Part shown: positions 27,565 to 60,061 of the stretch, one piece after another | How positions within the stretch are numbered: the stretch's first letter is position 1 | Layout of the letters: each line of letters starts with the position of its first letter | Origin: a bacterium | GTDB lineage: Bacteria; UBA8248 | DNA: 64,000 nucleotides | NCBI GenBank assembly: GCA_965204535.1 | Contig: CBDBEV010000001.1 | Location: 1,664,001-1,728,000 of the forward strand | Direction: 5' to 3' | The notes under the pieces: generated by a model | Told to the model about the DNA's origin: nothing | Seen by the model: the letters and a program-made list of their open reading frames with translations, nothing else | Database searches by the model: none | Position numbers and translations under genes: made by a program

Positions 27565-27585
27565 CGTTCACTCCTTTCGTTGTCC

Positions 27586-27957: not shown

Positions 27958-27993
27958 GCCTTTCTCCTTCGTAGAGAGTTAACGGATGCGCTT

Positions 27994-28182: not shown

Positions 28183-28477
28183 AGAGAGAGGGTAGTACCG
28201 CCACCGGGACACAAGAGCTTTTGGTGTTTCACGATGAAGGCGAAGCTCATCGGGAAACAGTCTCTCATGCTGCGGAAAGGGTCATTTCGGGCCGCATTTT
28301 CCGGCCCGAAATTCCCGCAGCGGGGGGTGGACCGAGCCACTATCCAGAACATGGGATGATTGCAGGAGCATGCCGAGCTTCCGGGAACACGGTTCATCGT
28401 TCACGGAACCGGAGATTTACCGGGTGGTCCCGGTAGCGGAGAGAGCCGGCAGGGCGGACCTTCTCTGGATAGCGAGC

Positions 28478-28513
28478 AAAAGAAAAGGGCTGACGCCGAA
28501 GCGCCAGCCCCTT
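28478..28513 (-). terminator. Intrinsic terminator after ssb (copy 1)
   Basis: GGGGCTGGCGC-TTCG-GCGTCAGCCCT followed by a T-rich tail. Confidence 0.8.
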
Positions 28514-28520
28514 GAAGCGC

Positions 28521-28967
28521 TCAAAATGGGATGTCTTCGCCCACTACGCCGGCGGTCGCCGCGACGTCCGCCGTCTCGGCGTGCGCGCCGTTTCCGTTGC
28601 CATTGCCGTTCCCGTTCACCTTGTCGAGGAACTGCACGCGCCCGCCCGGCGCGATGAGGATCTCGGTCGAGAACCGGTCCGAGTCCTCCTCGTCCTTCTT
28701 CCAGCGGCGGGTCTGGAGCTTGCCCGCGACGTAGACCAGGCGGCCCTTCTTCGCGTGCCGCTCGAGCATGTCCACCAGGCCGGGCTGGAAGGTGACGACC
28801 CGGTGCCATTCCGTCTTGTCCACCCGGTCGCCGGACTGCTTGTCGACGTAGCCCTCGTCGGTGGCGATGGATAGATTGGCCACGCGCCCCCCGCTCGTGA
28901 GGTGGTTGACGGTGACGTCGGCGCCGAGACGCCCGATCAGTTCCGCGCGGTTGAGTCCGAATGCCAT
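28521..28967 (-). CDS. ssb: Single-stranded DNA-binding protein
   Basis: LNRAELIGRLGAD, TEWHRVV, KGRLVYVAGKLQTR, C-terminal EDIPF; RBS AAGGAG. Confidence 0.95.
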   Translation of the reverse strand: MAFGLNRAELIGRLGADVTVNHLTSGGRVANLSIATDEGYVDKQSGDRVDKTEWHRVVTFQPGLVDMLERHAKKGRLVYVAGKLQTRRWKKDEEDSDRFSTEILIAPGGRVQFLDKVNGNGNGNGNGAHAETADVAATAGVVGEDIPF

Positions 28968-42005: not shown

Positions 42006-42350
42006 GCCAACCTGTCCATCGCCACGGACGAGGGCTACGTCGACAAGCAGTCCGGCGAGCGGGTGGACAAGACCGAGTGGCACCGGGTCGTCACCTTCCA
42101 GCCCGGGCTGGTCGACATGTTCGAGAAGCACGCGAAGAAGGGCCGCCTGGTCTACATCGCGGGCAAGCTGCAGACCCGCCGCTGGAAGAAGGACGAGGAG
42201 GACTCCGATCGGTTCTCGACCGAGATACTCATCGCGCCTGGCGGGCGCATTCAGTTCCTCGACAAGGTGAACGGGAACGGCAATGGCAACGGCGCGCACG
42301 CCGAGGCGACGGTGCCCGCAGGCGTAGCCGGGGACGACATCCCGTTCTAG
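42006..42350 (+). pseudogene. ssb: 5'-truncated ssb
   Basis: Homology starts abruptly at ANLSIATDEG; the first ~29 codons are replaced by unrelated AT-rich DNA; ends DDIPF. Confidence 0.85.
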
Positions 42351-42356
42351 GCTCAG

Positions 42357-42392
42357 AAGGGGTCGGCGCTTCGGCGTCGGCCCCTTTTTCTT
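42357..42392 (+). terminator. Intrinsic terminator after ssb (copy 2)
   Basis: GGGGTCGGCGC-TTCG-GCGTCGGCCCC-TTTTT. Confidence 0.8.
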
Positions 42393-42689
42393 TGCTCCTT
42401 ATCCAGAGGAGGTCCGCTCTGTCGGTCCTCTCATCTACCGGGAACACCCGGTCAATCCTCCGGTTCCGTGAACGATGAACCGTGTTCCCGGAAGATCGGC
42501 TTGCACCTGCAATCATCCCATAATTCCAGACAGTGGCTCGGTCCACCCCCCGCTGCGGGAATTTCGGGCCGGAAAAACGGCCCGAAATGACCCTTTCCGC
42601 AGCATGAGAGATTGTTTCCCGATGAGCTTCGCCTTCATCGTGAAACACCAAAAGCTCTTGTGTCCCGGTGGCGGTACTACCCTCTCTCT

Positions 42690-42878
42690 CTTAGCGCTCC
42701 CATTTTAGCACGCACGGCGCGGGGTCAAGGGTGCTTTTGCAAAAAACGCAAAAGCATCTTTTTTCAGAAAAAATCGGTGAAACGTGGATTTTTTCCGCTG
42801 CGCGCCCTCCGGGTGAAAAAAGACTGAAAACCGCCCCTGACGCCCACGCCTAGCACGTGCTGAAAATGGGACGCTAAG
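42690..42878 (+). promoter_or_regulatory. Frpo-like single-stranded-DNA promoter hairpin (copy 2)
   Basis: CTTAGCGCTCCCATTTTAGCACG pairs with CGTGCTGAAAATGGGACGCTAAG; inner hairpin TGCTTTTGC/GCAAAAGCA. Confidence 0.65.
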
Positions 42879-42914
42879 AAGCGCATCCGTTAACTCTCTG
42901 GAAAGGAGAAAGGC

Positions 42915-43289
42915 ATGGAAACCACCGTGGTGAACCTGAACGACTACGTTGCTCCCCAGTTCGGAGGCGGCTTGCTGGTCAGGATCGACCGGGCGACGAA
43001 GTGGGGAAACCCCTTCCGGGTCGGCAAGGACGGCTCCCGCAGCGAGGTCATCGAGAAATACCGGCGATGGCTGTGGGGAAAAATCCAGCGCGAGGAGCAG
43101 GACCTCCATGAACTCGCCGACCTGCAAGGCTGCGAGCTCGGCTGCCACTGCCATCCCCTGCCGTGCCACGGCGACGTACTCGCGCGTGCCGCCGAGTGGG
43201 CAGCCAGGTATCTCGACGAGATGCCGAAAGAAGTGGGGCGCAACGAGCGTGGCTACGCTCTTCCCGAATTCAACCATCCCCTCGCTTGA
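42915..43289 (+). CDS. DUF4326 domain protein (copy 2)
   Basis: TKWGNPF, LGCHCHPLPCHGDVL; AAGGAG RBS. Confidence 0.88.
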   Translation: METTVVNLNDYVAPQFGGGLLVRIDRATKWGNPFRVGKDGSRSEVIEKYRRWLWGKIQREEQDLHELADLQGCELGCHCHPLPCHGDVLARAAEWAARYLDEMPKEVGRNERGYALPEFNHPLA

Positions 43290-43310
43290 GGACAACGAAA
43301 GGAGTGAACG

Positions 43311-44264
43311 ATGACCGCCACCGAGACACACAAGGAGATGATCATGCACGAGGTTGACACCATCGAAGCGCAGAACGAATCCTTCACCGCCATGGTATGC
43401 GAACAGGCAGCACTCTTCGGCGCGACCCCCGGCCCCGACGAGTTCGACAACCGGCCCGTCTGGGGCGAGGCGGAGTCCACCGCCGCCGTCCTCAAGGCCT
43501 TCGGCGCACTCGCGGAAGCCGCACCCGACGGAACGCAACTCGCGGATGAGCGGGCGAGCCTCCTGTGGGGCTTCGTCAACACCCTCGACGCCCAGACCCA
43601 GCGCCTCGACCGCGCCGCCGACAAGCTCATCCCCGGCATCCGTGAAATGCAGCGCGAGCAGGACGGCTCCGAGATCAGGTCCCGCGAACTTGAACTCGCC
43701 ACCGATCGGGCCGAGAATCTCACCGCCCGCCGCGACGCCTTCGAGGTGCTGCGCGACACGGCCGCCGAGGCCTACCGCGTCGAGACCGGCGAGGTATGGC
43801 GGCCCAGGCGAGGATCGCACGTCTCACAGACCGGCAAGCTCACATCGGCGGTGATCGAGGCGCGGGACTTCCAGCGCGCGAGAAAGGACCGCGAGAACAC
43901 CGCCCACCTCCCCCAGGGAACCCTCGTCGCCGTCGCGGGCGGCAAGGAAGCCACCGACGCCGGCAGGATCATCGGCCAGCTCGACAAGCTGAAAGCCAAG
44001 TACGCCGACGTCGTCCTCGTCCACGGCGGCGGCCCGGGTGCGGAGAAGGTTGCAGCCGGCTGGGCCGAGCGCAACGGCGTCCACCAGGTCGTCTGCAAGC
44101 CCGACTGGGACGCCCACGGCAGGGCCGCTCCCTTCAGGCGCAACGACGAGTTGCTCTCCCTCCTCCCCAGGGGCGTGATCGCGTTCCCGGGTTCGGGCAT
44201 CACCGACAACCTCGTCGACAAGGCCCGAAGCCTGGGCATCCCCGTTCAACGCGTGGCCGCCTGA
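43311..44264 (+). CDS. DUF2493 / YspA-like SLOG domain protein (copy 2)
   Basis: Near-identical protein to 26605-27564. Confidence 0.85.
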   Translation: MTATETHKEMIMHEVDTIEAQNESFTAMVCEQAALFGATPGPDEFDNRPVWGEAESTAAVLKAFGALAEAAPDGTQLADERASLLWGFVNTLDAQTQRLDRAADKLIPGIREMQREQDGSEIRSRELELATDRAENLTARRDAFEVLRDTAAEAYRVETGEVWRPRRGSHVSQTGKLTSAVIEARDFQRARKDRENTAHLPQGTLVAVAGGKEATDAGRIIGQLDKLKAKYADVVLVHGGGPGAEKVAAGWAERNGVHQVVCKPDWDAHGRAAPFRRNDELLSLLPRGVIAFPGSGITDNLVDKARSLGIPVQRVAA

Positions 44265-44302
44265 TGTGAACACTCCTCGGGTCGCGTCGTCGTCGCCCGG
44301 CG

Positions 44303-46084
44303 GAGACTGTGAGAGTATTGGATTTCACAGTCTCCGGAACAGGGCTCGCTTACGCTTGCAGCCCGATGGCCGGACACTGTCTTCAACTTCGGGAGCAACA
44401 ACACCGCAGAGCCGGGAGAGAAACGTCTCGGCGGCCGGTCAGCTCGGGGTCGCGGTCAAGTCCTCGAAGAATCGGCTTCAAGTTCACACGCCATTCGTCC
44501 CCAACCGCTGTTTTTGCAGACAATGCTCCACAAATGCAGCTCCGCCCAGCACACGCATGACCCGCTTGAAGTTGTAACCCAGCGTCATCAGGCTGAATTC
44601 GCCGCGGCATTTGCCGAGTCCGCGCATCACAAAATGATCCATCCCCGCCCAGCGCTTGATCGTACCGAATGGATGTTCGACGAGTGTGCTTCGCCCGCGC
44701 ATCAATGGCACACGGGCGTTCATCTTCTTGCGATGCCGGTCCACCACGTCCTCATGCTCCCAGCGTTGTATCCTGCGCGTCGATCTCGACTTTGTCAGGC
44801 ATCGGCCCGACAACGAACAGTCCCGGCAAACCGCCGCCGTCCCGCGATAAAAGTAATACAGCCTGCCCCTGACGGTGGTCGTGCCGCCTCGAACCAGACG
44901 CTCTCCGGCCGGACAGACATACGTGTCATCCTGCGCATCGTAACGGAATTCATCGCTGCCGAATCGTCCGTCCTTGCCCTTGCGGGCCGTCTGGTTCGGT
45001 ATCGGAACATACACCTCCATTCCCTTGTCTTCGCAACTCTTCAACTGTGCGCCGTTGAAGTAGCCCGAATCCGCCAGGCCGACCAGGCGTTCGCTGCCCA
45101 TGGCTTCGCCGGCTTTCGTCATCATCGGCTCCAACTGAGCGGAGTCATTGCCGTCCTGCACCACATCCTCCGCGACAATCAGCTTGTGCTTGTCGTCCAC
45201 CGCGATCTGGCAGTTGTATCCGCCCACCATTATATCGCCGTTCCTCAGAAGTCGAGCATCTGCATCGACCCCCGATACCTGACGCTCTCCGCTTTCCTGC
45301 AAATGCTCTTGCAGTGCCTTCTTCTTTTGTTGCCTCTCGATCAAGGCCTTGAGCTTCACCGGCAGGTCCGGATCCTCCGAACCGTCCCCACACTCCTCCC
45401 CGCGCGCATCCGCCTCGTCCAACTGCCGGTGATACGCCGCAATCCTCTTCTCCAAACGCCTCAGGTCCCTTGCCAGGGACCGCTTGGTTTGGAAGCTGTC
45501 CAGGTTCGCATCGGCCTTCAAAAAAGTCCCGTCGACCGCCACCCGGCTGCCGCCCAGCAGCGAGAGTTCGCGGCACAGCAGCACGAACTCCCGGTTGGCC
45601 TCCTGCAGCGCAGCCACATTGTTCTTGCGAAAATCCGCAATCGTCTTGTAGCTCGGCGTCGCACCCTGGCACAGCCAGATCACTTCCAGATTGCGCCGCG
45701 TCTCCGCTTCGAGACGGCGCGAACTCCGTACCCGGTGCTGGTAGCCGTACAGATACAGCTTCAGCAGCAGCGCCGGGTCGAAAGCCGGCTGACCGGCGCC
45801 GCAGTTCGCTTCGGCATGCGCGAACCCCAGCGCCTCCAGGTCCAGCGTGCCGACGAACGCATCGATCGCGCGCACCGCATTGTGCTCGGACACGTAGTCG
45901 TCCAGACACGGCGGAAGCAGCATCATCTGGCTTCGGGACTGCACCTCCTGATAACGTCTCTCGGACATGGTGGTGACCCTTTATGTGGTTATCTCACTCA
46001 CCGGTAAAGATAGCATGTACAGACAACCCGGGCATCGCTCGCCAGCGTCACCCACCAGAATCGTGGGAATACTTTCACAGTCTC
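44303..46084 (-). mobile_element. IS1182-family insertion sequence
   Basis: Terminal IRs GAGACTGTGAGAGTATT / AATACTTTCACAGTCTC; flanking direct repeat CGTCGCCCGGCG at 44291-44302 and 46085-46096. Confidence 0.9.
44484..45968 (-). CDS. IS1182-family DDE transposase
   Basis: LLKLYLYGY, SSRRLE, TIADFRK, VDGTFLKA, GYNCQIAVD, ADSGY, VEHPFGTIK. Confidence 0.95.
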   Translation of the reverse strand: MSERRYQEVQSRSQMMLLPPCLDDYVSEHNAVRAIDAFVGTLDLEALGFAHAEANCGAGQPAFDPALLLKLYLYGYQHRVRSSRRLEAETRRNLEVIWLCQGATPSYKTIADFRKNNVAALQEANREFVLLCRELSLLGGSRVAVDGTFLKADANLDSFQTKRSLARDLRRLEKRIAAYHRQLDEADARGEECGDGSEDPDLPVKLKALIERQQKKKALQEHLQESGERQVSGVDADARLLRNGDIMVGGYNCQIAVDDKHKLIVAEDVVQDGNDSAQLEPMMTKAGEAMGSERLVGLADSGYFNGAQLKSCEDKGMEVYVPIPNQTARKGKDGRFGSDEFRYDAQDDTYVCPAGERLVRGGTTTVRGRLYYFYRGTAAVCRDCSLSGRCLTKSRSTRRIQRWEHEDVVDRHRKKMNARVPLMRGRSTLVEHPFGTIKRWAGMDHFVMRGLGKCRGEFSLMTLGYNFKRVMRVLGGAAFVEHCLQKQRLGTNGV

Positions 46085-46246
46085 CGTCGCCCGGCGGCGG
46101 CGCGGCCCGTCGCTTCTCCTGATTGCTCCGCTCGCCTCCTCCCGCTCACTCGCCGCGGCGGCTTCCGCTCGCCATCCTCTCCGGCGAAAATTCCCCTGTC
46201 GTTCGTTCCCAAGAATCCGCCGTTAGCCGCCCTTCGGCGCTTCGGA

Positions 46247-46272
46247 TTTCACACCGGACGCATCGCTGATGC
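46247..46272 (-). other. Putative oriT 2 (variant MOB-F nic site)
   Basis: Minus strand GCATC-AGC-GATGC hairpin running into TGCGTCCGGTGT^GAAA, at the position equivalent to oriT 1. Confidence 0.65.
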
Positions 46273-46628
46273 AGGTGTCGCGTTGGTGCGGCTGCCTGCG
46301 ATATGCTTTGAAAATTCGCATCCCCGGGTATTCCTGTCGCGCCGAAAAAAGTAATACCAATCTGGTAGCACTCGAACCTTTTGAAATCATTTCACTTAGA
46401 GAATCGCGTATGCTCATGTAATACGGGGAGTTCCTAAAAGATACCAGATTGGTAGTACACGGAGGCGCGCTGCGCTATGATGGCTACCATTTTGGTAGTT
46501 CATGAAACGGCGTCACGGGCATCGTTTTTGGGCCCGATGCGGGTGTGTTTGGTGCAGGAAATGAGAATTTTGCGGTCGTTTTGCGACCGGTACGGATGAA
46601 AATCTTGTTGAGAGGAGCGGCGAAACGG

Positions 46629-46970
46629 ATGGTTCAGACGATACAGAAGAACATCAGGGTCACGCCCGAACAGTGGAAACGAATTGAAAATGAGGCCGAA
46701 AAGCGCGAAATGTCGCCCAACCGACTGGTGGTAGAGCTCGTGATGGAAGCCCTGGAGCGCCGCGAATGGCCCCGCACAGAGGCCGAAATCCATCTGTTGC
46801 GCTCTGCGATGTTCACCGCGCAGGCCATCATCCGCGACATGGAGAGGACCGGACGAGAGGAAGAAATTGAGCAAATCAGCAGGAATATTTCCGAAGTCGC
46901 GCCCGAATTGCCCGACAAATTAACGAAAGACCCACAAAATCGGGCGGATTCGCAGAACGGCGATGTATGA
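46629..46970 (+). CDS. Ribbon-helix-helix protein, probable relaxosome accessory factor
   Basis: QKNIRVTPEQWKRIENEAEKREMSPNRLVVEL; same position as the RHH gene of module copy 1. Confidence 0.7.
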   Translation: MVQTIQKNIRVTPEQWKRIENEAEKREMSPNRLVVELVMEALERREWPRTEAEIHLLRSAMFTAQAIIRDMERTGREEEIEQISRNISEVAPELPDKLTKDPQNRADSQNGDV

Positions 46971-47367: not shown

Positions 47368-48774
47368 ATGGCCATGCCACTTTCTAGCGCTGAAAAAAAA
47401 AGTGATCAGGCACGGCCTGTCGTTCAATTAACCCAAGAATGGGGAGATTGGAGCAGTGTTTCACTCTACCTCGATCGGTGCCGCGTAGATACACCCTTGC
47501 ATTTAATTGAGGCAATATGGGCACACGTTAAGAATCTTCGTAGAACTGTTGGGAAAGTCCTAGATTTTGGAGCAGGTGACGGGCGATTTTCCCGAGGCGG
47601 AGTTTACGGTGAATACATTGGGTATGAAATTGATGACTCACTCTGTCAGAATTCAATCTTGCCAGACAACGCGAAATTACTGAATCAATGTGCATTTTCT
47701 GATGAAATATCCGACGCAGATCTTTGTATTGGGAACCCTCCATATGTGAGAAATCAGGATCTTCCCACTGGATGGCGGCAATATGTTTCAGAGATACTAC
47801 AACGAAGATCTGGAGTTGCTGTTTCTGGTCTGGCTAATGCGTGGCAATATTTCTTTCTTCATGCTTTGACCTCGTTGAAAGATGATGGGCTATGTGTACT
47901 AGTAATTCCATATGAATGGGTATCACGTCCATCAGCCAAGGCCCTGCGGGACTATATCCATGAGCATGGCTGGAACGTAAAAGTCTATCGTTTGGTTGAT
48001 TCGAGTTTTGACAACGTTCTAACCACCTCTTCCATTACAATTGTCGACAAAGCCAAATCAGATGGAAAGTGGGAATATTACGAAGAAACTTCGGCTGGAC
48101 GCTCTATCCCAATAAAATCCCCAAGTGGCTCAAAAGCTGAGGTGTTAGATTATCTTTGTAAGAGGGACATTCCCCGAAACACCCCTTTGGCAAAAAGAGG
48201 TTTGAGTCCTGGAACGCAAAAAGTTCTTACCCTTACTGAGGGTGAGCGCGTAAGAAACGGACTCGTTATCGATCTGGATGTCGTGCCTTGTGTAACCAGT
48301 TTGAGAAACTTATCTGCGGATATCAAAGAACTTAGCGATGAAATCTTTCGACTCTATTATCGCGATCAGGGTCGGAAGTGTTGGTTAATTCGAACAGACA
48401 AAGAGGTGAGTCCCGCATTACGCCTTTACCTTGATGCAGTTCCCGAGTCGAACTATCAGACAGCGACATGTCTTGGGCGCGAAGAATGGTGGAAATTCAC
48501 CATGCCGTCTGTACCATCCATGCTGATTGCACAAAGCTTCAAGGGCAAATTCCCCAAAAGAGTATACAATCAGGTAAAAGCACGAGCAGTAGGTAGCGTG
48601 TGCGGAATCTATAATGTAAACAAGGGGCAAGCTCAGCGAATTGCTCACGGTTTGGGTATTTCCGATCTACGTAATCAAGTTGTTGCCCATGCTAACGGGT
48701 TTTATAAAATCGAAATCAACCAGTTAAACTTTCTGCTTCAACGGGAATTTGGAGCATTAGAGGCCTATGAATAA
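47368..48774 (+). CDS. Amino (probably N6-adenine) DNA methyltransferase, gamma class / Eco57I-like
   Basis: Motif I VLDFGAGDG before motif IV GNPPY; C-terminal TRD-like region; no nuclease domain seen. Confidence 0.88.
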   Translation: MAMPLSSAEKKSDQARPVVQLTQEWGDWSSVSLYLDRCRVDTPLHLIEAIWAHVKNLRRTVGKVLDFGAGDGRFSRGGVYGEYIGYEIDDSLCQNSILPDNAKLLNQCAFSDEISDADLCIGNPPYVRNQDLPTGWRQYVSEILQRRSGVAVSGLANAWQYFFLHALTSLKDDGLCVLVIPYEWVSRPSAKALRDYIHEHGWNVKVYRLVDSSFDNVLTTSSITIVDKAKSDGKWEYYEETSAGRSIPIKSPSGSKAEVLDYLCKRDIPRNTPLAKRGLSPGTQKVLTLTEGERVRNGLVIDLDVVPCVTSLRNLSADIKELSDEIFRLYYRDQGRKCWLIRTDKEVSPALRLYLDAVPESNYQTATCLGREEWWKFTMPSVPSMLIAQSFKGKFPKRVYNQVKARAVGSVCGIYNVNKGQAQRIAHGLGISDLRNQVVAHANGFYKIEINQLNFLLQREFGALEAYE

Positions 48775-51040
48775 TTCGTCATTGGCGACACAAAACCTGC
48801 TCGATAAGGGAACACTGTCATTCACGATTGAGAGCAGGATTCTCCGCGAACTCGGTGAACGCCTTGTCAAGCAGCCGGAAGTTGCTGTGGTTGAACTGGT
48901 CAAGAATTCCTATGACGCAGATGCATCAAAGTGCGTGGTGGCTTTCAACTCTCCAGAATCGGTCACTGTTTCAGATGACGGAATTGGAATGACGCTGGAC
49001 CGCTTTATCGAAGGTTGGATGCGGATCGGGACTTCTTCTAAAGAAGAATCAGTTGTTAGTGAAAAATTTGTCCGGCTTATAACAGGTGAAAAAGGTATCG
49101 GGCGCTTCGCGGTGCGTTTTCTTGGCCGGGAACTAAAATTAGAATCTATTGCTGACGATCCTGACAGAGGAGTTCGTACTCTGTTGACGGCCAATTTTGA
49201 TTGGCCGAACTTTGACCGAAATGAAGATCTTGGACAAGTGCAGGTTCCCTATGAACTCGTTAAGGTAGAAAAGACTACTGGGACTGGGACTAAATTAGAG
49301 ATAACTCGTCTTCGGTCGGTAACAAATCGGCTTAATCTGAATACAATTCGAACAGGCTCAATCGGTATTTTGTCCCCACTACGTTCCCTTTTCCGAGAAA
49401 TGTCAGCTGGCGCTAACGTTAAAATCCGAGATAGGTTTTCTGATCCAGGTTTTACGTTGGAGCTAAAGACTGAAGATTCTTCTGATGAGATTGACGACGT
49501 TGCGTCCCAAATTCTCAATTCGTTCGTTTTGCGTGCATGGTTGAGTGTAAACAAAAATAAAATTAATCTAAGAATTTATTGTCGCAACTCGAAAAAGCCA
49601 TATCTTGAAATTACAGACTCTTATCCAAATGAAATTGGAAAGCTTAACGCGGATATACGATTTTTCCCCCGCCGCGCGGGAACATTCACAAACATGCCTC
49701 TTGATGGGCGACGCGCGCAACGTTGGATAACCAATAATCATGGTGTTGCTGTTTTCGATCGGAATTTCCGTGTCCCGCCTTATGGATACCGAGGAAACGA
49801 TTGGTTACAACTTCAGGCAGATGCTGCCCGCAACCGCCGAGACCCACGGTCCGAGTTGGCTAAAAAGCACTTTCAAATGACACAACCCGTTAAGTCCGAT
49901 ACTTCACTAAATTGGATGTTGCGGCTTCCGCAGTCACTCCAACTCGTGGGGCTTGTGCAAGTCCAAGCTCATCGAAGCAAGGTATCTGATACTCAACAGG
50001 ATGAAATGAGATTGATTGCGTCAGCCGATCGCCAAGGGTTCGTTGAAAATACTGCATTTGAACAGCTTCAAGATCTTGTCCGTGGGGCCGTAGAGGCAAT
50101 CGCGTTCGTTGACCGTCAACTGCAAATAAAAGAAGAAGAAGCAGAACATCGGGCACAAGTAGCGGCGATCCAAGAGCAAACAAAAGCAGCAATCTCGGAA
50201 TTGGAAGCCAACCCTGGTATATCTGCTCGAGCTAAAGCACAACTCATTGGTGTTTTAGCTGAAACACAGCGCATGGTAGAAAAGCAAGAGGAGAGTTCCA
50301 AGGAGCGTGAACAACAATTGGAAGTCATGAGTCTCCTAGGTGTTGTTGCCGGGTTTATGACCCATGAATTCGACGCTGCATTAAAGAAGCTAGAACAAAC
50401 TCACAAAGAATTACTCAAGATAGCTAATACAACTCCGAAGTTTGGGGAAGCAGCCAATCAGTTTTCTCTTCGGATTAAGCAGTTGAAAGAGTTTGTGACT
50501 TACTCAAAGGGCTATATCCAAGGTGCTCGTGTAGCACCTGCAAAACCATATCCAGTAAGACCTCGGCTTCGCCAAGTTCAGCGAGTTTTCGGAAAGTACG
50601 CAGAGGATCGCAACATCCAAGTTCAAATCATGGCAGACGCTGAGTTGATAGCACCGCCAGTACCGGTTTCGCTTTACAATGGTCTTGCACTTAATCTCTA
50701 TACGAACGCCTTGAAGGCCGTCACGGCTAAGTTAGGAAGACGGCAAGGAAAAATTGCATTCCGTGCTTGGAACGATGGTCGGTGGCACTATCTTGAAGTA
50801 TCAGACACGGGGATCGGCATACCATCTGCATTACGGGAGAGAGTATTCGACCCACTTTTTACCACAACCGATTCTCGTAATGACCCAATGGGTTCCGGAA
50901 TGGGACTCGGTTTAGCTCTCGTGAAGCGCGGCGCTGAGGCATTCGGCGGAAATGCCAGTGTGGTCGACCCTCCAGGAGAATTTTCAACTTGTGTTCGTGT
51001 TCGCTTGCCTTTAGCTACGAAAGAGACCCAGCATGAATAA
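48767..51040 (+). CDS. MORC-like GHKL ATPase fused to a histidine kinase
   Basis: N-terminal ELVKNSYDADA, DDGIGM, GEKGIGRFA; C-terminal H-box MTHEF, N-box NLYTNA, DTGIG, FDPLFTT, GMGLGL; no TM helices. Confidence 0.92.
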   Translation: MNNSSLATQNLLDKGTLSFTIESRILRELGERLVKQPEVAVVELVKNSYDADASKCVVAFNSPESVTVSDDGIGMTLDRFIEGWMRIGTSSKEESVVSEKFVRLITGEKGIGRFAVRFLGRELKLESIADDPDRGVRTLLTANFDWPNFDRNEDLGQVQVPYELVKVEKTTGTGTKLEITRLRSVTNRLNLNTIRTGSIGILSPLRSLFREMSAGANVKIRDRFSDPGFTLELKTEDSSDEIDDVASQILNSFVLRAWLSVNKNKINLRIYCRNSKKPYLEITDSYPNEIGKLNADIRFFPRRAGTFTNMPLDGRRAQRWITNNHGVAVFDRNFRVPPYGYRGNDWLQLQADAARNRRDPRSELAKKHFQMTQPVKSDTSLNWMLRLPQSLQLVGLVQVQAHRSKVSDTQQDEMRLIASADRQGFVENTAFEQLQDLVRGAVEAIAFVDRQLQIKEEEAEHRAQVAAIQEQTKAAISELEANPGISARAKAQLIGVLAETQRMVEKQEESSKEREQQLEVMSLLGVVAGFMTHEFDAALKKLEQTHKELLKIANTTPKFGEAANQFSLRIKQLKEFVTYSKGYIQGARVAPAKPYPVRPRLRQVQRVFGKYAEDRNIQVQIMADAELIAPPVPVSLYNGLALNLYTNALKAVTAKLGRRQGKIAFRAWNDGRWHYLEVSDTGIGIPSALRERVFDPLFTTTDSRNDPMGSGMGLGLALVKRGAEAFGGNASVVDPPGEFSTCVRVRLPLATKETQHE

Positions 51041-52136
51041 GGTCAAATCGGCGATTTTGGTAATCGACGATGATGAAAAGAGTCTCAAAGGGCTCTCTGC
51101 TCTTTTGAAAAATCTGCTCCCAGATGTTGTTGTTAATTCATGGCAACCAACAGAAAAAGATGCTTCGCCAGCGGAGGCTTTTGAAAAACACCTCGGTAAT
51201 AATACGGAACTAGTTGTTACAGACTACGACTTGACGACAACCGTGAAGGGTCTATTTGGCTTGAGCGTTGTAGGGTGGTGTCAACATCGGACAATCCCCG
51301 TCGGTGAATTTGCGCGGATTAATGTTGACGCACTCCCGAAGGAACCCAGCCTTTTTGAGCTTCGGGTTCCCACGGATGAAGAAGAGGCTGCAAAATTTAT
51401 AGCGAACACATTCGAAGGTTTTAGAGAAGTTCGAACAAGCATTGAGCGCAACCCTACGTTAATTTCTGAAGGTCGAAGCTTATCAGCCGTGTTATCAGTG
51501 TTGCTGGAACGTCCTCATTTGGAAAGTCAATTCGCAGCATATATGTCTCGGCTTGGTTCGACAAACTCCGCGCTCCTCGAAATTCTTAAAAGTTTTGCCA
51601 ACAGGAAAGATAAGCAAAATGACGACGAAAAGCTTAAACTCTTAACTTACGTGTTGGGACATGTCTTGGTGAATTCTGTGTTGAAATATCCAGGACCTAT
51701 TCTGTCCGAAGAAGTCCTGTGCGCTTACCTTACGACCGAGGGAGAAGCAATCGATGCAGTGAAAAATTGCTTCGAGGAGGCTAGGTATAAGGGGCCGTTT
51801 GGTCAGGTAGGCCATTTATACTGGCGAGATGAAGTAGATGTTATTCTAGATGACTTGGCAACAACAATTGAAAATATTGATGAAGAAGTCTTCGATTCCT
51901 TCGGTGAATATAACCGCTACATTATAGAAAGTGCCTTGAAAATTGATCTTCCACCACATCAATGTGATCGATGCAAAGGTAGAAAAGGCGGATTCTGGTG
52001 TCCTTTCACAAAACGTCCCATCTGTGAACGCGCCGACTGTTCAGTACCTGCGAGTAGTTGGATTCCTTCAGGAGCGCAACTCTGTCGAGTAGAACGAGAT
52101 TATTACGACGAGTGGGCACCTCTTCTTGGTTTGTAG
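51033..52136 (+). CDS. Receiver-domain protein with a Cys-rich C-terminus
   Basis: ILVIDDDE, VVTDYDL (phosphoacceptor Asp); CDRC...WCPF...C...C tail; 8-bp overlap with the kinase. Confidence 0.8.
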   Translation: MNKVKSAILVIDDDEKSLKGLSALLKNLLPDVVVNSWQPTEKDASPAEAFEKHLGNNTELVVTDYDLTTTVKGLFGLSVVGWCQHRTIPVGEFARINVDALPKEPSLFELRVPTDEEEAAKFIANTFEGFREVRTSIERNPTLISEGRSLSAVLSVLLERPHLESQFAAYMSRLGSTNSALLEILKSFANRKDKQNDDEKLKLLTYVLGHVLVNSVLKYPGPILSEEVLCAYLTTEGEAIDAVKNCFEEARYKGPFGQVGHLYWRDEVDVILDDLATTIENIDEEVFDSFGEYNRYIIESALKIDLPPHQCDRCKGRKGGFWCPFTKRPICERADCSVPASSWIPSGAQLCRVERDYYDEWAPLLGL

Positions 52137-52152
52137 CGTCCGGACCATTCTC

Positions 52153-52884
52153 ATGAATCAACACGCTTTTCGAGTAGAGCAAAAGGTTCATTCCGCTTGG
52201 AATGGAGTTCTCGACGGTCTAAAGCAGATGAATCAGGCGAGTACAGTGCGTCCAGAAGTTCCTTCGATGGTATTCAAGGTTGACCAATGTGCGCCTGATG
52301 ACGTTGTTAAACTGTTGGTTGGTCCAGTCGTATTTAACATTCCTGAACGCGCGAATGGCCAAGCAGCAAATCTTTTTATTGTGATAAAAGGGTGGTTGAC
52401 TTTTGAGGGGCCAGATTTTGGAAACACACCGTTCAAGACGGGGAATTTTGGAACAAATGTGGCATATTTTCGATTAAAGGATAGTCGACTCGAACATGTT
52501 TTTGGCGCGCATTATGATATGGACGAAATGAGAAATGGGCACCCAGTATTTCACGCACAGTTTAGCTCCCAAATTAATATTGGCTCAAGCATAAAAGAGC
52601 TCTTCAATCGCAGTGATGAGTTGGTTGATCATTTAGAAAAAATTCTTAACAGAGTCCGAACACCTACTGCGCAGATGGACGTATTCTCAGTCTTTACACA
52701 GATATGCGCGGATCATCTGATGTGGGAACAGTCGGCGCCGGAGGTGCAACGCGCTTTTGAACAAACACGCAGTTCATGCAACTTTATCGTTGGTGCTGCT
52801 CATCGCTTAGCATACCTTAATAGCAAGCCCGCTATTGGATGTTATCGATCAACTCACTGGTATGGGCCCAATGTTAAAGTTTGA
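52153..52884 (+). CDS. Hypothetical protein, last gene of the operon
   Basis: 243 aa, 16 bp after the receiver gene; HYD...HPVFHAQ motif. Confidence 0.7.
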   Translation: MNQHAFRVEQKVHSAWNGVLDGLKQMNQASTVRPEVPSMVFKVDQCAPDDVVKLLVGPVVFNIPERANGQAANLFIVIKGWLTFEGPDFGNTPFKTGNFGTNVAYFRLKDSRLEHVFGAHYDMDEMRNGHPVFHAQFSSQINIGSSIKELFNRSDELVDHLEKILNRVRTPTAQMDVFSVFTQICADHLMWEQSAPEVQRAFEQTRSSCNFIVGAAHRLAYLNSKPAIGCYRSTHWYGPNVKV

Positions 52885-53300: not shown

Positions 53301-53855
53301 TTATTTGTTTCTAAGCAACAATTTCGATAACACGGCCACCTGACTATTTTCATAACTTTCCTTTGATATTTCCTCCAGTTTTTTCTCTAACCATTCGTTG
53401 TCCAATAGTATCCAACCATTATTATTGAAGTGCTCGCGAAGTTTCTTCCCATCCGAAGCCCTCACGATTTTTCCACATGCAAGAGCAAGTTTGATTGTGG
53501 TTTTAGTCTTGCTTGCGATGAGCCCTTTGTCATACATTTGGTGGCGCAGTCGCTCGAAAACAACGCGCCTCAAATTCTCATCGTTGAACAATTTGTAACG
53601 TTCCGCCGCCTTTGGATTGCTGCCATCGAACGCCTTGTAAGCAACACCTCCTGAATCCAGAAAACTTTTGCACTCAACAACAAGGAGTTCGTTCCGGTTC
53701 GCACTGTATCCAACCAGGTCAAGTTCCCATCTCGGACTCGATGGTCGACCTATTGCTCTTTTCTCCCCCTTGGTCAGTTCAACCTTGAAAGCGCTTCGGA
53801 TCCAGTACCCATCCCGATGCAAGATTTCACCGACCACGCTCTCAAAGGCATCCAT
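53301..53855 (-). CDS. Small PD-(D/E)XK nuclease-like protein
   Basis: FE...WELDLVGY...LLVVECKS. Confidence 0.75.
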   Translation of the reverse strand: MDAFESVVGEILHRDGYWIRSAFKVELTKGEKRAIGRPSSPRWELDLVGYSANRNELLVVECKSFLDSGGVAYKAFDGSNPKAAERYKLFNDENLRRVVFERLRHQMYDKGLIASKTKTTIKLALACGKIVRASDGKKLREHFNNNGWILLDNEWLEKKLEEISKESYENSQVAVLSKLLLRNK

Positions 53856-53930
53856 AGCGGTTCTTTATAATAAATGATTCGAAAGTCATCTCAGTTGAGA
53901 CACCACCCTACCAAGTAGAAGCTCTCCCGC

Positions 53931-56900
53931 TCACTTGATCTCCTTCTCGATAAACCCGAGCGTGATGGCGTTCTCGGTTAGGGTGCGGACTTTCCCTTGA
54001 TCAAGGCCCTCGGGAACCTCGGCGTCGATTTCAAGCTTGATGGACACCTCACTGCCGGGAAGGGTAGTGAGTTGTTCAACAACGCCTTCAATAACTTGGT
54101 GGATGTCACGGGCAGGACGCTCAGGAGAGATCATCACCGTGCCGACAAAGCGCGTCGGCTTTTTCTCGTCCGGATCAGGCGGAACGGGTTTGTTGATATC
54201 TGGATCTGGGGGGAGTTTCTTCTCTCGACGTTTCTCAGGCGGTTCGGGGCGATTCGCCTCCGCGACCTTCGAGGCCACGATCAGGCTCTCGCTGTCGATG
54301 ACGACCTGCACATTTACAGCACTGTCTATAGCGAGACCCCGATAAGCGCCGGCAGCATCGTCCCAACCCTCGGCATAGGCGAAGGGTCCTGGATGCAATT
54401 CGCTGATGGCAGAGGTGATGGACCTGGCGAGCACCGAGCGGTTTTTCAGCCGTGGCAGGTAGGTGTAGCGATTGCAGTATTCCCATAGGTCTTTCAGGGA
54501 AAGGTGGTCCTTGTCTTTCCAGATATATTTTTGAAGCTCGTTATCGAGACGCTGCGGGCCGATTTCGATCAAGAGTGCCTCTTCGTCCACCAGACGCTTG
54601 CTCGCCCGCCTGAGCAGACCGTCTTGAACCGATATCTTTCCCGATACCCATTCGACCTCGGCCTCGGGGCTCTCTTGCGCCGGATAGAGGAGGTAGCACC
54701 AGGCCTCTTTGAGCCGCGCGCCCAGCGCCTCTTTCGCTTCCTTGAGTTTCTCTTTCGCAAGCGCGCTGTCGCTCTGGGTGAGATTGAGCCGCTCGGTTTC
54801 GCGTACGATGCTCTCCCAGGCGAGGACGTCGCGCATGCCGTCCTTGAGAATTCCAATCTGACGCGCTTCGGCAGCGAGAAACACCAGCATGTTGCGGTTG
54901 ACGCGGGGCGTAGAACCGCGATTCAGCAGAATTTCCCCGCCGAACTCCAAGGCTTCCGATTTCTCGCGACCGTTGTGCGGATGAGTCACGCCGAGCACCA
55001 CCGCGCGCACCCCGCCCGCTTCATCGGGCACGTCCCCTGAATTTCCCGGCGCTACCTGAACGGCGTCGAAGTGCTCCCGATCTCTTTGGCTGTTGATGTA
55101 GACCGCCAGCGCCTTATCGATCTCGACGAGGACAAGTGCCTCCTCAACCTGACCCGCCCGGTCTGCGGCCAACCGGTTGAGGCTGGCCGAAACCGAATAC
55201 CAGTAGCGTCCGAGATCGGTGTGGAGGAACCGCGCATGGTTGCCGAGCCGCCGCAGCGCATCGCTGAAGAGCGCCGGACGCTCACCCGGCTGGATAACAC
55301 CCAGGTTAATCTGCTTATCGTCCAATCCCTTGTTTTCCTGGCTGTGAACAGGAGCCGTGCCCATGAAGATCGCCCGCGCAACCCGGCGTGTTGCTGAATA
55401 GCGGTTCAGGTTGGGTGTTGATTGGTCGATCTTGTAAGGAATGGAACCACCGCCTTCTACATCGCCAGCGATAATCGCTTGCCAATTCACGTCGAGGTAG
55501 CGCAGCAGTTCCGGTCCTACCCGGTCTGAGTCGACCGCAATGTTTCCCGGCATGATCATTACCGAAGGATCGCCCTTCATCCACAACTCGTGTACAGCTT
55601 GCGCCATCAGACGCAGCACGCCACGAGTGCGCTGGAACTCCTCCAGCGAGCCCCAACTCGTATATAATTGGTCGAAGAGTTCCGGGTGGATGGGGTAGGC
55701 CTTCTCCATCTTGCGGCGGTAGTCCTCATCGGCCGAGCCGCGCGGGAACTCGTTCGCGTTGTCTCGGTAGAGTCTGGCGAATTGCTTGAGCGTGTTGTCG
55801 CGATGGTGGTATCTGTCGCCGGGTATCTCCCTGAATAGGCGTCGACGGACTATCTCGTAGCTTTCTTCCTGGGATGCTGGCCGCCAGGAGGATTCGATGC
55901 GCGAGAAGGTCTGCTTTAGCCGGTCCAAAGCCTCGGCACCGCCTTCGCCTCCCACCTCGATCTGTGAAGCAGGCAGAGCCGCCACGAGCACGGTCTGAGG
56001 GCTGGCCTTGACCGCCTCGGTAAGAGACTGAACGAAGCTCAGATTGGCGTCGAACGAGCCGGCCGGGAGTCCTTCCGTCCTGTAAATCTGACGGAGATAA
56101 GCTACCCATTCGTCGATCAGGATGAGGCAGGGGGCGCAGTCCCTGAAAATGGCCTCAAGAATATCTGAGCCGGGCGCGATCCCCTTGGCGTCGTTTTCGG
56201 CTATCGCATCGAAGGCCGCAGACCCGCCCAATTGCCAGGCCATCTCGCCCCAGGTCGTGCGGATTTCCCTTCCGCCCTCACAAGAAATCGTATCCTGTGG
56301 GCCACGGGAGGTGCCGACCATCACCGCGCGTTTGATTTCCTTCGGCAAGGATACATCATGCTCCGAGAGAAGCTGGTCGAGGCCCGGCAGGTCCTGCGCG
56401 GGCGTGTCTCCCGCCATGTGGTAGAGCGCCAACATGGAGTGGGTCTTGCCGCCGCCGAAGTTGGTCTGAAGCTCCATCACGGGGTCACCGCCTGCTCCTG
56501 ATAGCCTTTTGGCTGCACTCACCAGAAGCGTTGACAGGCCGTCAGTCAAATATGTTCGGCTGAAAAACTCTTGCGGGTTCAGGTATTCAGAAGGGGCGCT
56601 GCCGGCGTGAACATTGCCCAAATGAGCAGCGAATTCCGCTTGTTGGAACTCGCCCGTGGCAACATCCTCGTGCGGTTCGACCACCTCGCGCCAGGGCCGC
56701 AGGCCGCCCGCCGCCTCGATGGAGAGTTGCTGCCCCTTCGTCTTTCGGCGTTCTTCGTTCCGCCGAAGCTCCGCAAACTTTGTGCGCAATATCGTATCCC
56801 GCATTTTGCCGAGTTGCCCGGCGGCATCGCCTGCACCGATCGCCTCCGTCAGGCGGCGCATGGAATCGAGCGCGCGCTCGGCATCGTCGTAGCTGAAAGT

Positions 56901-57197
56901 CTCGTTGTGAGAGAACCTGTTTCGCACGTCGAGCAGTTCGTTGACGATTGCGCGCTCCGCCCGCCCCAGCACAGCGCCGAAGGCATCTCCCCAGTAGCGG
57001 TTCATGGCGTGGAGCAACCCTGCCTGATCCCAGGCGATGTTGTCGCTGCTATCAGTTCGAAGGCGGAATTTTTCGACCATCTCCACCTGCCAATGGCCGG
57101 TAAGAGCGTTTTCCAGACGTTTTTCGACAAAAGGCGCCAGCGCCTCGGGCAGGACTTCCATACCTTCAAAAACGATTTGGCGCGCGCTCTTGGCCAT
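53931..57197 (-). CDS. Swt1-HEPN fused DUF499 AAA+ ATPase
   Basis: N-terminal RNRFSH (R-x4-H); PWREVVEPH, EFAA, TNFGGGKTHS, LILIDEW, YPIHPE, FQRTRGVLRL. Confidence 0.92.
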   Translation of the reverse strand: MAKSARQIVFEGMEVLPEALAPFVEKRLENALTGHWQVEMVEKFRLRTDSSDNIAWDQAGLLHAMNRYWGDAFGAVLGRAERAIVNELLDVRNRFSHNETFSYDDAERALDSMRRLTEAIGAGDAAGQLGKMRDTILRTKFAELRRNEERRKTKGQQLSIEAAGGLRPWREVVEPHEDVATGEFQQAEFAAHLGNVHAGSAPSEYLNPQEFFSRTYLTDGLSTLLVSAAKRLSGAGGDPVMELQTNFGGGKTHSMLALYHMAGDTPAQDLPGLDQLLSEHDVSLPKEIKRAVMVGTSRGPQDTISCEGGREIRTTWGEMAWQLGGSAAFDAIAENDAKGIAPGSDILEAIFRDCAPCLILIDEWVAYLRQIYRTEGLPAGSFDANLSFVQSLTEAVKASPQTVLVAALPASQIEVGGEGGAEALDRLKQTFSRIESSWRPASQEESYEIVRRRLFREIPGDRYHHRDNTLKQFARLYRDNANEFPRGSADEDYRRKMEKAYPIHPELFDQLYTSWGSLEEFQRTRGVLRLMAQAVHELWMKGDPSVMIMPGNIAVDSDRVGPELLRYLDVNWQAIIAGDVEGGGSIPYKIDQSTPNLNRYSATRRVARAIFMGTAPVHSQENKGLDDKQINLGVIQPGERPALFSDALRRLGNHARFLHTDLGRYWYSVSASLNRLAADRAGQVEEALVLVEIDKALAVYINSQRDREHFDAVQVAPGNSGDVPDEAGGVRAVVLGVTHPHNGREKSEALEFGGEILLNRGSTPRVNRNMLVFLAAEARQIGILKDGMRDVLAWESIVRETERLNLTQSDSALAKEKLKEAKEALGARLKEAWCYLLYPAQESPEAEVEWVSGKISVQDGLLRRASKRLVDEEALLIEIGPQRLDNELQKYIWKDKDHLSLKDLWEYCNRYTYLPRLKNRSVLARSITSAISELHPGPFAYAEGWDDAAGAYRGLAIDSAVNVQVVIDSESLIVASKVAEANRPEPPEKRREKKLPPDPDINKPVPPDPDEKKPTRFVGTVMISPERPARDIHQVIEGVVEQLTTLPGSEVSIKLEIDAEVPEGLDQGKVRTLTENAITLGFIEKEIK

Positions 57198-57211
57198 CCT
57201 CTACTCCTCCT

Positions 57212-59995
57212 TTAAAGGTCCAGTTCGCCTTGCAGGTCGTCGGGCGTATCGCCAATCGCCGCCGCCTGCCGGGTGAGCTCCGGCCAAACGGCTATCAGGC
57301 CGTTCCATGCGGTTGCCTCCGCCGCATCTTTTCGTTTGTTGGCAGCAATGTCGTAGAGGCAATAGGCCAAATCTCTGGTCGCGTCGGTATTCCTGGGGCC
57401 GATCTTCTTGAGAAGCACGGCGGCACCATTTTCTCCGTTATGCTCAAGCGCGCGGACGAGATGCTGGCTGCATTCCCAGACGGTAAGGTGCCCGTCCTGC
57501 GCCGGGTCCCAGCCCGAGTCGAGCTCGTCGCGTCCGAGGATGCGGACCTTGCCGCCTGAAGCCTCCACGATCCCGGCGTGGCGGACACCCTCAACCGAGA
57601 TGCCGCGCGCCGTAGCGATGCTGTTCGCCACCCCGAAATCGCCCGCCTCCACCCCGTGCTGTTCGAACCAGGTGAGAGCGAAGCGTGTTTCGGCGTCGAA
57701 CTCGCCCTGTATGCCACCCAGGTATTCGTCGAGTTCGCGGTTGATGAGTTGCAGCGCAGTTTTCACGGGCATGGGAGTATCGGCGGCTTCCAGCACGGCC
57801 TTGCAGCGGCTGAAGACGGCCATTCCCGGGCCGATGGCCGCTTGCGGCATGTCGGCGGGTGCGATGTTCGCCTTTTGGAGAGTTTCGATAGCCGGGGGAA
57901 GTTGTCTCTTTAGAGCGCGTATGAATTCTGCGCGGCTGAGGGTTTCTGCGTTGCCATCCCGTTTGCGGCAAACTAAAACGACGGAGTTGGCAAGAGCGTT
58001 ACTTGCTTGGCCTCGCATGCGGTTGGGCAACTCTGTACGTATTGGCCATGTTCCGACGACGGCAAAACCTGCATTGATGATGGCCTCAAGAAACGTCGCC
58101 CAACCGGTCGAACTGATACCTTCGTCATTGATTTCGCTTTGCTTGAAGGCATAATAGAGAGTGGCTGGGAAATTGTCCGACGATTGGCGAACCATATTTG
58201 CAATCGCCTTGGACATGCCCCTAAGGAAAAAATATTCTGCCTTTTCCTTTCCTCCGTGCCGACAAGGTGTAGCGACCAGTTCCTCTTGCTTGGGGGTCGC
58301 AAGCACTCCGAACAAGTCCGGATAAACTGACTGAAGAGCGGGCTTCATCCAGCAAAAGAAAAAATCAGAGAGATCTGCGTATCCGATATTGTCGTAGTAA
58401 GGCGGGTCGGTGGAAAATACCGTGTCCTTAGGAAATCCAGCGGATTGGGCGTCGTATTGGCATAACGAACCACTACTGTTCAGCTTCAAATTAGCGAGCA
58501 CCTTCCATACCCAATCGCACATCGACATCCAATTGCCGGTGGATGTACTGAAAGGATTTGCTTCTGCGAAATCCCAGACCATAGGGATCGCTTGGCGGCC
58601 GAAAGTATTCCTCACTTTTGTGTATCCTGAATCCCAAGAACATATTGCGCTTCCCCGATCTGCCAGTCGATTTATGGTTAATCCTAAATACACACTCACC
58701 GCCTCGGCATAGGCTTTCGCGCCGGTGCCGCCGTGACGTACTGGGGTCTGGGCGTCGGAAAACCCGGCCGCCAGTGCGTCGCATTCAATTACTTCGCGGG
58801 CTTCATGAACCAATTCACTAAACGTGTTAAGCGCGGCAATTTGACGATCAGTGAAAAGGTCTCCGAAAGTAGTCAAGCCATAGCTACCAATCCTGAACCC
58901 GAGCGCATTCGGTTCGAAAACGATGTCAGGACGTTTTTCTGGTTTAACAGAACGAGCTAATTCTTCATGTTCAATTGTCGGGGGAATATATGTTCGGCCA
59001 TGTAACCCTTCGACGACGACAGCCATCAGCCTTACGCCTATATTACATTTTCGACCTTGAGCACGAATATACTCGAAAGGCATTGCCGCATCGGAAACAA
59101 GGCAAATCCCGCCTCGTCGGTTCATGGTTCCTTCAAGACCGTAGCGCGCGTCCCCATTTGCCGTAGAACGAATTGTAAAATAATAATCTTTGCCTTCAAC
59201 GATTGGCTCGACCCAGACTTCTTTTCCTTTCTTTGTCGAAAGATCAAAACTCCGAACCAGCGGCACATGCGCATCCGAAAACGCCGGATCAGGGCTTGGC
59301 ACGGTGCGTGTCCATATCCAGGCAATTACCGTCGCCTTGCCGCCGCCATGCTCCTTGGGGAGATCCACCTTCGGGTACAAATGGCCAATGCGCTCGAAGG
59401 CCTGCTCCCGCATCCAGGCGCCGTAGTATTTAACGTCTTCGGCCAAGCCCTCGGCGTTGCGATAGTGGTTGCGTTCCTTGGGACCTGGATGCGCCGGCTC
59501 TCTTTCTTTGAACAGTGGGGGAATCTCGATCATCGCCTTGCCGATCACCACGGCTACGGGGTTAAGATCGCTGCCATAAGCAGGAAGGCCAAGGCGCTGT
59601 GCCTCAAGCGGGATGGAGCCTCCGCCCGAGAAGGGATCGTAGATGGGGGGCAGTTCTCCTTTGCAACTACGGGCTATTTCCGCACGAGCGCGCGCGAGCA
59701 CCTCCTCGTTTGTGGAATTTTCCCATTTCACGAGGTCTTCGATGATCTTGAACAGCCGTCGTCGCTCCTTCTCGACGGTCTCTTGCGTGGGGAACTTTTC
59801 GGGATGGCTGGAGGGGTCGTCCACAAGTTGCGCGAACAGCACCGCCCGGCAGGCCGCCAGTGGCCTTCTGGCCCACCATAGGTGGAGCGTGGAAGGGTGG
59901 CCGTGGCGGATCGATTTCTCCCGCGCCGATGCGGCGTTGATCATATCGAGCGGAAGCGCAACCTCGATGAGTTTTTTCCTAACGCCTGAGTCCAT
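57212..59995 (-). CDS. DUF1156-domain adenine DNA methyltransferase (copy B)
   Basis: KKLIEVALPL, LHLWWARRPL, DPFSGGGSIP, TDPPYYDNI. Confidence 0.93.
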   Translation of the reverse strand: MDSGVRKKLIEVALPLDMINAASAREKSIRHGHPSTLHLWWARRPLAACRAVLFAQLVDDPSSHPEKFPTQETVEKERRRLFKIIEDLVKWENSTNEEVLARARAEIARSCKGELPPIYDPFSGGGSIPLEAQRLGLPAYGSDLNPVAVVIGKAMIEIPPLFKEREPAHPGPKERNHYRNAEGLAEDVKYYGAWMREQAFERIGHLYPKVDLPKEHGGGKATVIAWIWTRTVPSPDPAFSDAHVPLVRSFDLSTKKGKEVWVEPIVEGKDYYFTIRSTANGDARYGLEGTMNRRGGICLVSDAAMPFEYIRAQGRKCNIGVRLMAVVVEGLHGRTYIPPTIEHEELARSVKPEKRPDIVFEPNALGFRIGSYGLTTFGDLFTDRQIAALNTFSELVHEAREVIECDALAAGFSDAQTPVRHGGTGAKAYAEAVSVYLGLTINRLADRGSAICSWDSGYTKVRNTFGRQAIPMVWDFAEANPFSTSTGNWMSMCDWVWKVLANLKLNSSGSLCQYDAQSAGFPKDTVFSTDPPYYDNIGYADLSDFFFCWMKPALQSVYPDLFGVLATPKQEELVATPCRHGGKEKAEYFFLRGMSKAIANMVRQSSDNFPATLYYAFKQSEINDEGISSTGWATFLEAIINAGFAVVGTWPIRTELPNRMRGQASNALANSVVLVCRKRDGNAETLSRAEFIRALKRQLPPAIETLQKANIAPADMPQAAIGPGMAVFSRCKAVLEAADTPMPVKTALQLINRELDEYLGGIQGEFDAETRFALTWFEQHGVEAGDFGVANSIATARGISVEGVRHAGIVEASGGKVRILGRDELDSGWDPAQDGHLTVWECSQHLVRALEHNGENGAAVLLKKIGPRNTDATRDLAYCLYDIAANKRKDAAEATAWNGLIAVWPELTRQAAAIGDTPDDLQGELDL

Positions 59996-60061
59996 GTGCT
60001 TGCCTCGTGTTTTCCGCTCGGCGCAGCTGATTTATGCACCGAAGGTTTCGTTTCAAATCCC

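Follow-up and report, generated by a model that had tools for sequence, protein, structure and literature searches.

A mobile four-gene cassette with a MORC-like histidine kinase and a histidine-motif protein as a possible Ambrosia-like anti-phage system

Ambrosia (AbrR-AbrA-AbrB-AbrC-AbrD) of Pseudomonas aeruginosa joins an XRE protein, an N6 methylase, a kinase/HATPase, a receiver with a wHTH (winged helix-turn-helix) domain and a type IV HNH endonuclease. The preprint (bioRxiv 10.1101/2025.09.30.679545) describes that it blocks phages, that every gene and the receiver Asp are required and that expression rises upon infection; host toxicity was not seen there, and phages propagated on the Ambrosia methylase remained susceptible. 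Soluble kinases with HATPase_c_3, HEF_HK and HATPase_c domains were predicted in 2021 to be linked to receiver genes, mostly with C5 methylases, and the founding kinase-receiver genes are stress-induced, with a regulatory role proposed for them (PMC8011034). MORC and paraMORC ATPases occur in restriction-modification (R-M) neighbourhoods, where paraMORCs are described as R-M components (PMC2292703), and anti-T7 activity of DUF2290 together with a helicase is described in passages of PMC9122126 and PMC10952713 that offer no mechanism. Here we compare these systems with a cassette of four genes found in a 64,000-nucleotide stretch of bacterial DNA, hereafter the window (lineage UBA8248, assembly GCA_965204535.1, contig CBDBEV010000001.1, positions 1,664,001 to 1,728,000). 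In window coordinates, the cassette comprises:

47368..48774, + strand: gene 1, predicted gamma-class N6-adenine-type DNA methyltransferase, 468 amino acids (aa), with PF07669, PADLOC MTase_II and M.TaqI-type PDB matches
48767..51040, + strand: gene 2, soluble paraMORC-like GHKL ATPase with a complete histidine kinase, 757 aa
51033..52136, + strand: gene 3, atypical receiver with a helical middle region and a Cys/His-rich tail, 367 aa
52153..52884, + strand: gene 4, histidine-motif protein, candidate effector, weakly DUF2290-like, 243 aa from ATG

For this cassette, the genes present, their linkage and mobility and the conservation of catalytic residues are direct observations, and we put the probability at about 0.5 that it is an Ambrosia-like, kinase-gated anti-phage system in which gene 4 would be a damaging enzyme, likely a nuclease. 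Like Ambrosia, its nearest counterpart with experimental tests, it combines an N6-type methylase, a kinase/HATPase, a receiver with a phospho-acceptor Asp and a fourth gene, and some relatives of the cassette also carry an XRE gene. Unlike Ambrosia, the window cassette has neither an XRE (AbrR) nor an HNH (AbrD) gene, its 367-aa receiver protein ends in a Cys-rich tail, and gene 4 is without a match among solved folds. The likeness is one of described features. The cassette likely works like Ambrosia, yet by the listed features it is not a member, because AbrR and an HNH gene are missing. The defence system proposed in the initial annotation of the window is upheld in part: the genes are linked, they occupy a defence-cargo slot, the catalytic residues of kinase and receiver are kept and Ambrosia, with the same layout, blocks phages. 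The layout itself is not new, as kinase-receiver pairs (PMC8011034) and Ambrosia (bioRxiv 10.1101/2025.09.30.679545) are already described. No paper on the exact four-gene variant was found in the literature searched, which lacks most subscription papers.

The four open reading frames (ORFs) are joined by two successive 8-bp overlaps and a 16-bp gap, and the GC content of the cassette is 0.455, compared with 0.60 and 0.61 for the two contigs of the genome, which confirms the earlier description of four co-oriented, AT-rich and tightly packed genes. A promoter scan returned one site, the same as expected by chance. Co-occurrence across genomes, a check suggested with the initial annotation, was followed in an alignment scan of metagenomes with gene 4, which gave 105 relatives, the best 80 of which were kept; all linkage counts are anchored on gene 4 and do not measure kinase occurrence without it. 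Gene 3 lies upstream of gene 4 in 68/71 of these loci with at least 150 bp of upstream DNA, gene 2 in 47/49 with at least 1.5 kb, and the full order methylase-kinase-receiver-gene 4 is kept in 32/33 loci with at least 4 kb (26/27 after merging near-identical loci). Thirty of the 33 are intact; among the 32, L055 and L057 lack the kinase half together with the beginning of the receiver gene. Other exceptions have a transposase upstream (L027), unrelated genes (L036), a deletion (L029) or no methylase (L072). Between pairs of loci, the divergence of each of the four genes correlates with that of the others (Spearman 0.61-0.76, 25 loci, where kin are not independent), and the kinase tree is a quick version with long-branch warnings, the deep branching of which we do not rely on.

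Beyond these loci, the one close plasmid match of kinase, receiver and methylase is a single Paraburkholderia locus, in which the four genes are all present and a helix-turn-helix (HTH) gene stands upstream. An XRE/HTH gene stands upstream of the methylase in 7/33 loci examined, and none was found within 800 bp before gene 1 in the window. Scanning genome contigs with gene 3 alone returned one locus; on viral contigs, the gene-4 scan found 0 among 40 candidates and the gene-3 scan two loci, which match L073. Gene 4 was found in none of 50 host relatives, of which 22 belong to the same genus and several have incomplete genomes. The spread of the cassette is patchy and horizontal.

The insertion site of the cassette follows a gene of the ribbon-helix-helix (RHH) type:

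46545..46970, + strand: NikA/RHH-like mobilisation gene, marker of the cargo slot, outside the cassette (PF21983 E 1e-4, below cut-off)

The cassette was initially said to sit right behind this gene. The order is correct, but the two do not directly adjoin, with 397 bp between the RHH end (46970) and gene 1. An 800-bp block containing the RHH gene (window 46100-46970) occurs at nine places in the genome, with homology stopping near the 3' end of the gene, and TrwC relaxase genes are found at eight places. Of the other eight RHH copies, one is at a contig end; the 6 kb behind the remaining ones hold AbiEi/AbiEii (in two cases), Septu PtuAB, a SIR2 protein, paired PIN and GHKL genes, a large protein of PIN type and Cas1/Cas9. 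With defence-type genes behind 7/8 of the other copies, the cassette occupies a variable defence-cargo slot marked by the RHH gene. A PIN_8 and GHKL pair and a 2073-aa PIN-type protein of the host genome (L122:3615-7089 and L124:775-6993, both G000) have no PADLOC match at E≤1e-8 and are possible uncatalogued defence genes. The 123 mechanically called ORFs that flank 27 related loci include relaxases, resolvases, integrases and insertion sequence (IS) genes.

Strict four-gene linkage on mobile DNA near relaxases, resolvases, integrases and IS elements, together with AbiE toxin-antitoxin pairs in the same cargo slot, would also suit a guard or addiction module. In such a module, the kinase would watch the methylase or its mark and, upon their loss, by a phage inhibitor or by loss of the element, would turn on gene 4 as a toxin that kills the cell. 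We consider this rather improbable, as cells with Ambrosia defended themselves without host toxicity, and as broken copies of the cassette keep gene 4 after loss of the kinase half (L055/L057) or of the methylase (L072). The slot and the patchy horizontal spread also speak against a function outside defence, in which the four genes would serve the mobile element in epigenetic or stress signalling and gene 4 would be, in the manner of Vsr, a protein for repair or an accessory one. Such a function would agree with the stress induction and proposed regulatory role of the founding kinase-receiver genes (PMC8011034), and with some sister cassettes that consist of methylase, kinase and receiver only; given the anti-phage activity reported for the same layout in the Ambrosia preprint, we find it quite unlikely. 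For the Ambrosia-like anti-phage system, the properties of the four proteins are next to be weighed.

Of the initial protein assignments, that of gene 1 as a gamma-class NPPY methyltransferase is sustained. Its S-adenosylmethionine-binding motif DFGAGDG (residues 66-72) precedes NPPY (123-126), NPP[YF] is kept in 29/29 aligned homologues, Pfam and PADLOC searches returned PF07669 (Eco57I, E 1e-11) and MTase_II (E 8e-18), respectively, and the closest solved relatives are adenine methyltransferases including M.TaqI. Gene 1 is hence predicted to be an N6-adenine DNA methylase, with the methylated base judged from these similarities. As a side observation, Cys38, Cys338 and Cys368 are invariant (29/29) and Cys308 nearly so.

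The kinship of gene 1 with type II methyltransferases would fit a licensed form of R-M, in which methylation by gene 1 would label self, the MORC-kinase would recognise DNA that lacks the label and gene 4 would be a restriction enzyme of new fold that cuts at unmethylated sites. paraMORCs are described as R-M components (PMC2292703), and sister cassettes join C5 methylases to Vsr genes, which fits a lasting host methylation. Against it, Ambrosia methylation gave phage no protection, and related fourth-slot proteins are found beside N6 as well as C5 methylases, contrary to the expectation for a simple cognate pair; we therefore regard licensed R-M as unlikely. The earlier idea that methylation marks self is likewise doubtful, because passage on the Ambrosia methylase left phages sensitive (bioRxiv 10.1101/2025.09.30.679545).

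Gene 2 was annotated as a soluble protein with two GHKL domains, one MORC-like and one in a complete histidine kinase, and this agrees with our data. Pfam places HATPase_c_3 at residues 37-138 and HATPase_c at 642-750, both above their cut-offs, and HEF_HK at 524-574 with 16.7 bits, below its cut-off of 24.1. E43 and N47 are kept in 27/28 aligned homologues, the remaining one having a gap, and all 28 keep H533, N643, N647 and D680. Hydropathy gave no membrane segment (maximum over 19 residues 1.18), and the ATPase and kinase halves are predicted to be joined through a coiled coil. PADLOC REase_II matches on gene 2 span its GHKL domain only. Similar to the HEF_HK (PF19191)/Response_reg_2 (PF19192) pairs, a soluble kinase with HATPase_c_3, H-box and HATPase_c is followed by a receiver and has a methylase upstream; in contrast to these pairs, HEF_HK stays below its cut-off, Response_reg_2 gives no match, the methylase is of the N6 type where theirs are mostly C5, and the fourth gene is another one. 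The N-terminal GHKL ATPase with its following conserved region beside a DNA methylase resembles paraMORC. It differs from prokaryotic MORC by a fused kinase, by the lack of a superfamily 2 (SF2) helicase in the cassette and by a signature offset of one residue: by eye, residues 326-336 do not follow the strict motif GhXhhpXXRhl of the S5 domain and place the Arg one position late.

For gene 3, a receiver protein with a Cys-rich tail had been proposed and is likewise supported. In the predicted model (mean predicted local distance difference test score, pLDDT, 92.7), residues 6-148 resemble receiver domains (VIA fold search, Z 12.6, root-mean-square deviation 3.1, 128 aligned residues), and D12, D13 and D64 are invariant in 41/41 members. 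The five C-terminal Cys are invariant as well (41/41), and because of this conservation the tail suggests zinc binding. Residues 223-277 are modelled as strand-helix-helix-strand-helix, an arrangement like that of MerR/Xis-type wHTH domains, and could be a winged HTH. Pfam, PHROGs and PDB profile searches returned no HTH match, and fold searches covered the receiver part only, so that the initial reading of no HTH output is provisional. Response_reg_2 (PF19192) was absent from the 41 members at E≤1, and an Atlas search with residues 140-367 gave no usable match. A complex prediction for the proteins of genes 3 and 4 scored 0.00, which is no verdict and not taken as evidence.

Gene 4 remains a 243-aa protein of unrecognised type, as it was first described. 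It is widespread: clustering at 90% gives 248 homologues and clustering at 50% gives 469 representatives (E≤0.001). Its predicted model has a pLDDT of 91. Pfam and PADLOC library searches returned no known family, Foldseek gave no match at E≤0.001 in PDB or BFVD, the best VIA Z score of 5.4 is under the usual background and a profile search of PDB sequences was empty. Among its homologues, H120, H130, P131, H134, R169, D176 and D187 are invariant (110/110), and D122 and Q136 are kept in 109/110. HNH families were found neither in 120 homologues at E≤1 nor in PADLOC. From a short histidine motif in common with DUF2290 and with the fourth gene of sister cassettes, a weak link, gene 4 is likely a metal-dependent enzyme and possibly a nuclease. 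P0231, a candidate fusion of receiver and gene 4, was rejected, its Cys tail being out of frame and treated as a frameshift; a putative resemblance to TumE/DUF6516 carries no weight in our reading.

Distant cassettes show what else the fourth slot may hold. Their kinases were gathered from 10/401 genomes of another phylum, 6/51 genomes of the host's phylum and four plasmid loci. A second family of about 230 aa takes the slot in L108, L110, L111, L117, L118 and L119, several of them with a C5 methylase or Vsr gene. This unnamed family has 98 homologues (e.g., L119:3770-4444 and L110:3404-4099) with the signature R-[YF]-E-x-P-E ... H-x-x-x-H-x-Q. L085 and L086 carry H-P-x-x-H proteins in the slot, and L114 an HNH gene. 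Gene 4, DUF2290 and the fourth genes of sister cassettes have the motif H-x-D...H-P-x-x-H-x-Q in common. The pattern [HRF][YF][DE]-x(4-14)-H[PDNC]xxHx[QH], which was composed after the families had been seen, hits 236/244 proteins of the gene 4 family, 92/103 of the second family, 4/5 DUF2290 proteins and 0/4750 other host ORFs, and misses L085, L108 and L118. As a forward check, archaeal L087, with an unannotated fourth gene, has an ORF in which a similar motif can be read by eye, with Lys in place of the first His; the pattern misses it. This ORF (L087:8200-9400, Halomicrobium plasmid NZ_CP044130.1) follows the receiver gene and is absent from the plasmid's gene table. A second, distant MORC-kinase cassette of the host genome itself (L121, G000:C2 about 2018200-2023050) consists of Vsr, kinase, receiver and C5 methylase.

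The shared motif of gene 4, DUF2290 and the fourth-slot proteins is likely a shared metal site. Like DUF2290, gene 4 belongs to proteins of about 230 aa with [HRF]-[YF]-D ... H-P-x-x-H, then R-x-P ... D, and the Atlas places it at 0.89 with a cluster that is 15% DUF2290 (185 shared features). Unlike the system of helicase and DUF2290, gene 4 has no PF10053 match, and no helicase is among the four genes. Profile comparisons align on the histidine motif, if weakly, with probabilities of 0.4-14%. Kinship with DUF2290 is thus a lead based on a weak link. We may tentatively speculate that gene 4, DUF2290 and the fourth-slot proteins of many bacterial and archaeal MORC-kinase cassettes belong to a single, as yet undescribed superfamily of histidine-cluster nucleases whose fold the PDB does not contain, and that such a nuclease is turned on by a phosphorelay under control of a MORC-like DNA clamp. 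If true, it would become possible to test directly what is sensed by prokaryotic MORC-type ATPases, and DUF2290 would gain a function. The class of the system is unsurprising, with a known layout of which one version blocks phages; the questions concern its effector and its signal. As to the effector, gene 4 is well predicted, has an invariant His/Asp set and stands in a slot held elsewhere by an HNH nuclease. A 5.5-kb cassette of four genes with obvious point mutants makes both the MORC-kinase coupling and a DUF2290-like function testable.

For the Ambrosia-like reading, the following sequence of events may be envisaged. When infection alters the DNA or the methylase, the MORC-like ATPase at the N terminus of gene 2 would detect this and release the fused kinase, which would autophosphorylate at H533. 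The phosphate would then pass from H533 of gene 2 to D64 of gene 3, whose C-terminal part, helical and predicted to bind zinc, would in turn activate the methylase and gene 4, be it in their expression or in their activity. The action of gene 4 would proceed via its His/Asp metal site (H120, D122, H130, H134, Q136), most likely as that of a nuclease. The methylase is probably no simple self shield; by analogy with Ambrosia, it likely marks the target or is itself monitored.

Several points weigh against this reading, besides the missing XRE and HNH genes and a pattern built with the families in view. In gene 3, R111 occupies the usual Lys position, with Arg in 40/41 members, and Ala94 is found in the window copy alone, where 40/41 members have Ser or Thr. 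Arg for Lys or loss of the Ser/Thr switch residue impairs CheY signalling, and the window copy may be weakened by Ala94. No fourth-slot motif gene is seen in L084, L109, L112, L113, L115, L116 and L121. The link of gene 4 to DUF2290 reaches only 2-3% probability in hhalign (E 0.015-0.023), PF10053 is absent from 120 members of the gene 4 family and cross-family hidden Markov model scores are mostly at decoy level. As to the slot, host elements are defence-rich overall, which sets a high background for this evidence. In the flanks of the related loci, defence-type domains (HNH, TIR, AbiEii, HipA-like, RES, Schlafen) are a minority; many flank ORFs have no match, and most neighbours are of the mobile-element or unknown type.

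Around the cassette, the window also contains Dsr2-, Upx- and Hma-like genes. Dsr2-like, Upx-like, SIR2, HEPN_Swt1 and NERD/SEC-C genes lie at 21417-25229, 37676-41404, 7714-8943, 6449-7630 and 2905-5058, respectively, and this dense defence cargo surrounds TrwB/TrwC and two integrases. The Hma-like operon (53301-62878, - strand) has tandem HmaB methylases of 927 and 938 aa that are 74% identical, and an HmaC with an N-terminal HEPN domain. Its last gene encodes 184 aa with a PD-(D/E)xK-looking motif (by eye) and no library match. Located at 53301-53855 on the - strand, 416 bp downstream of the cassette, this gene was considered as a cassette member and rejected, with 0 matches in 81 loci. Finally, long inverted homology between 26374-28880 and 42006-46265, with arms of up to 935 nt and 83-94%, points to a pair of related mobile-element backbones in facing orientation, and an IS with a DDE transposase is located at 44484-45968.

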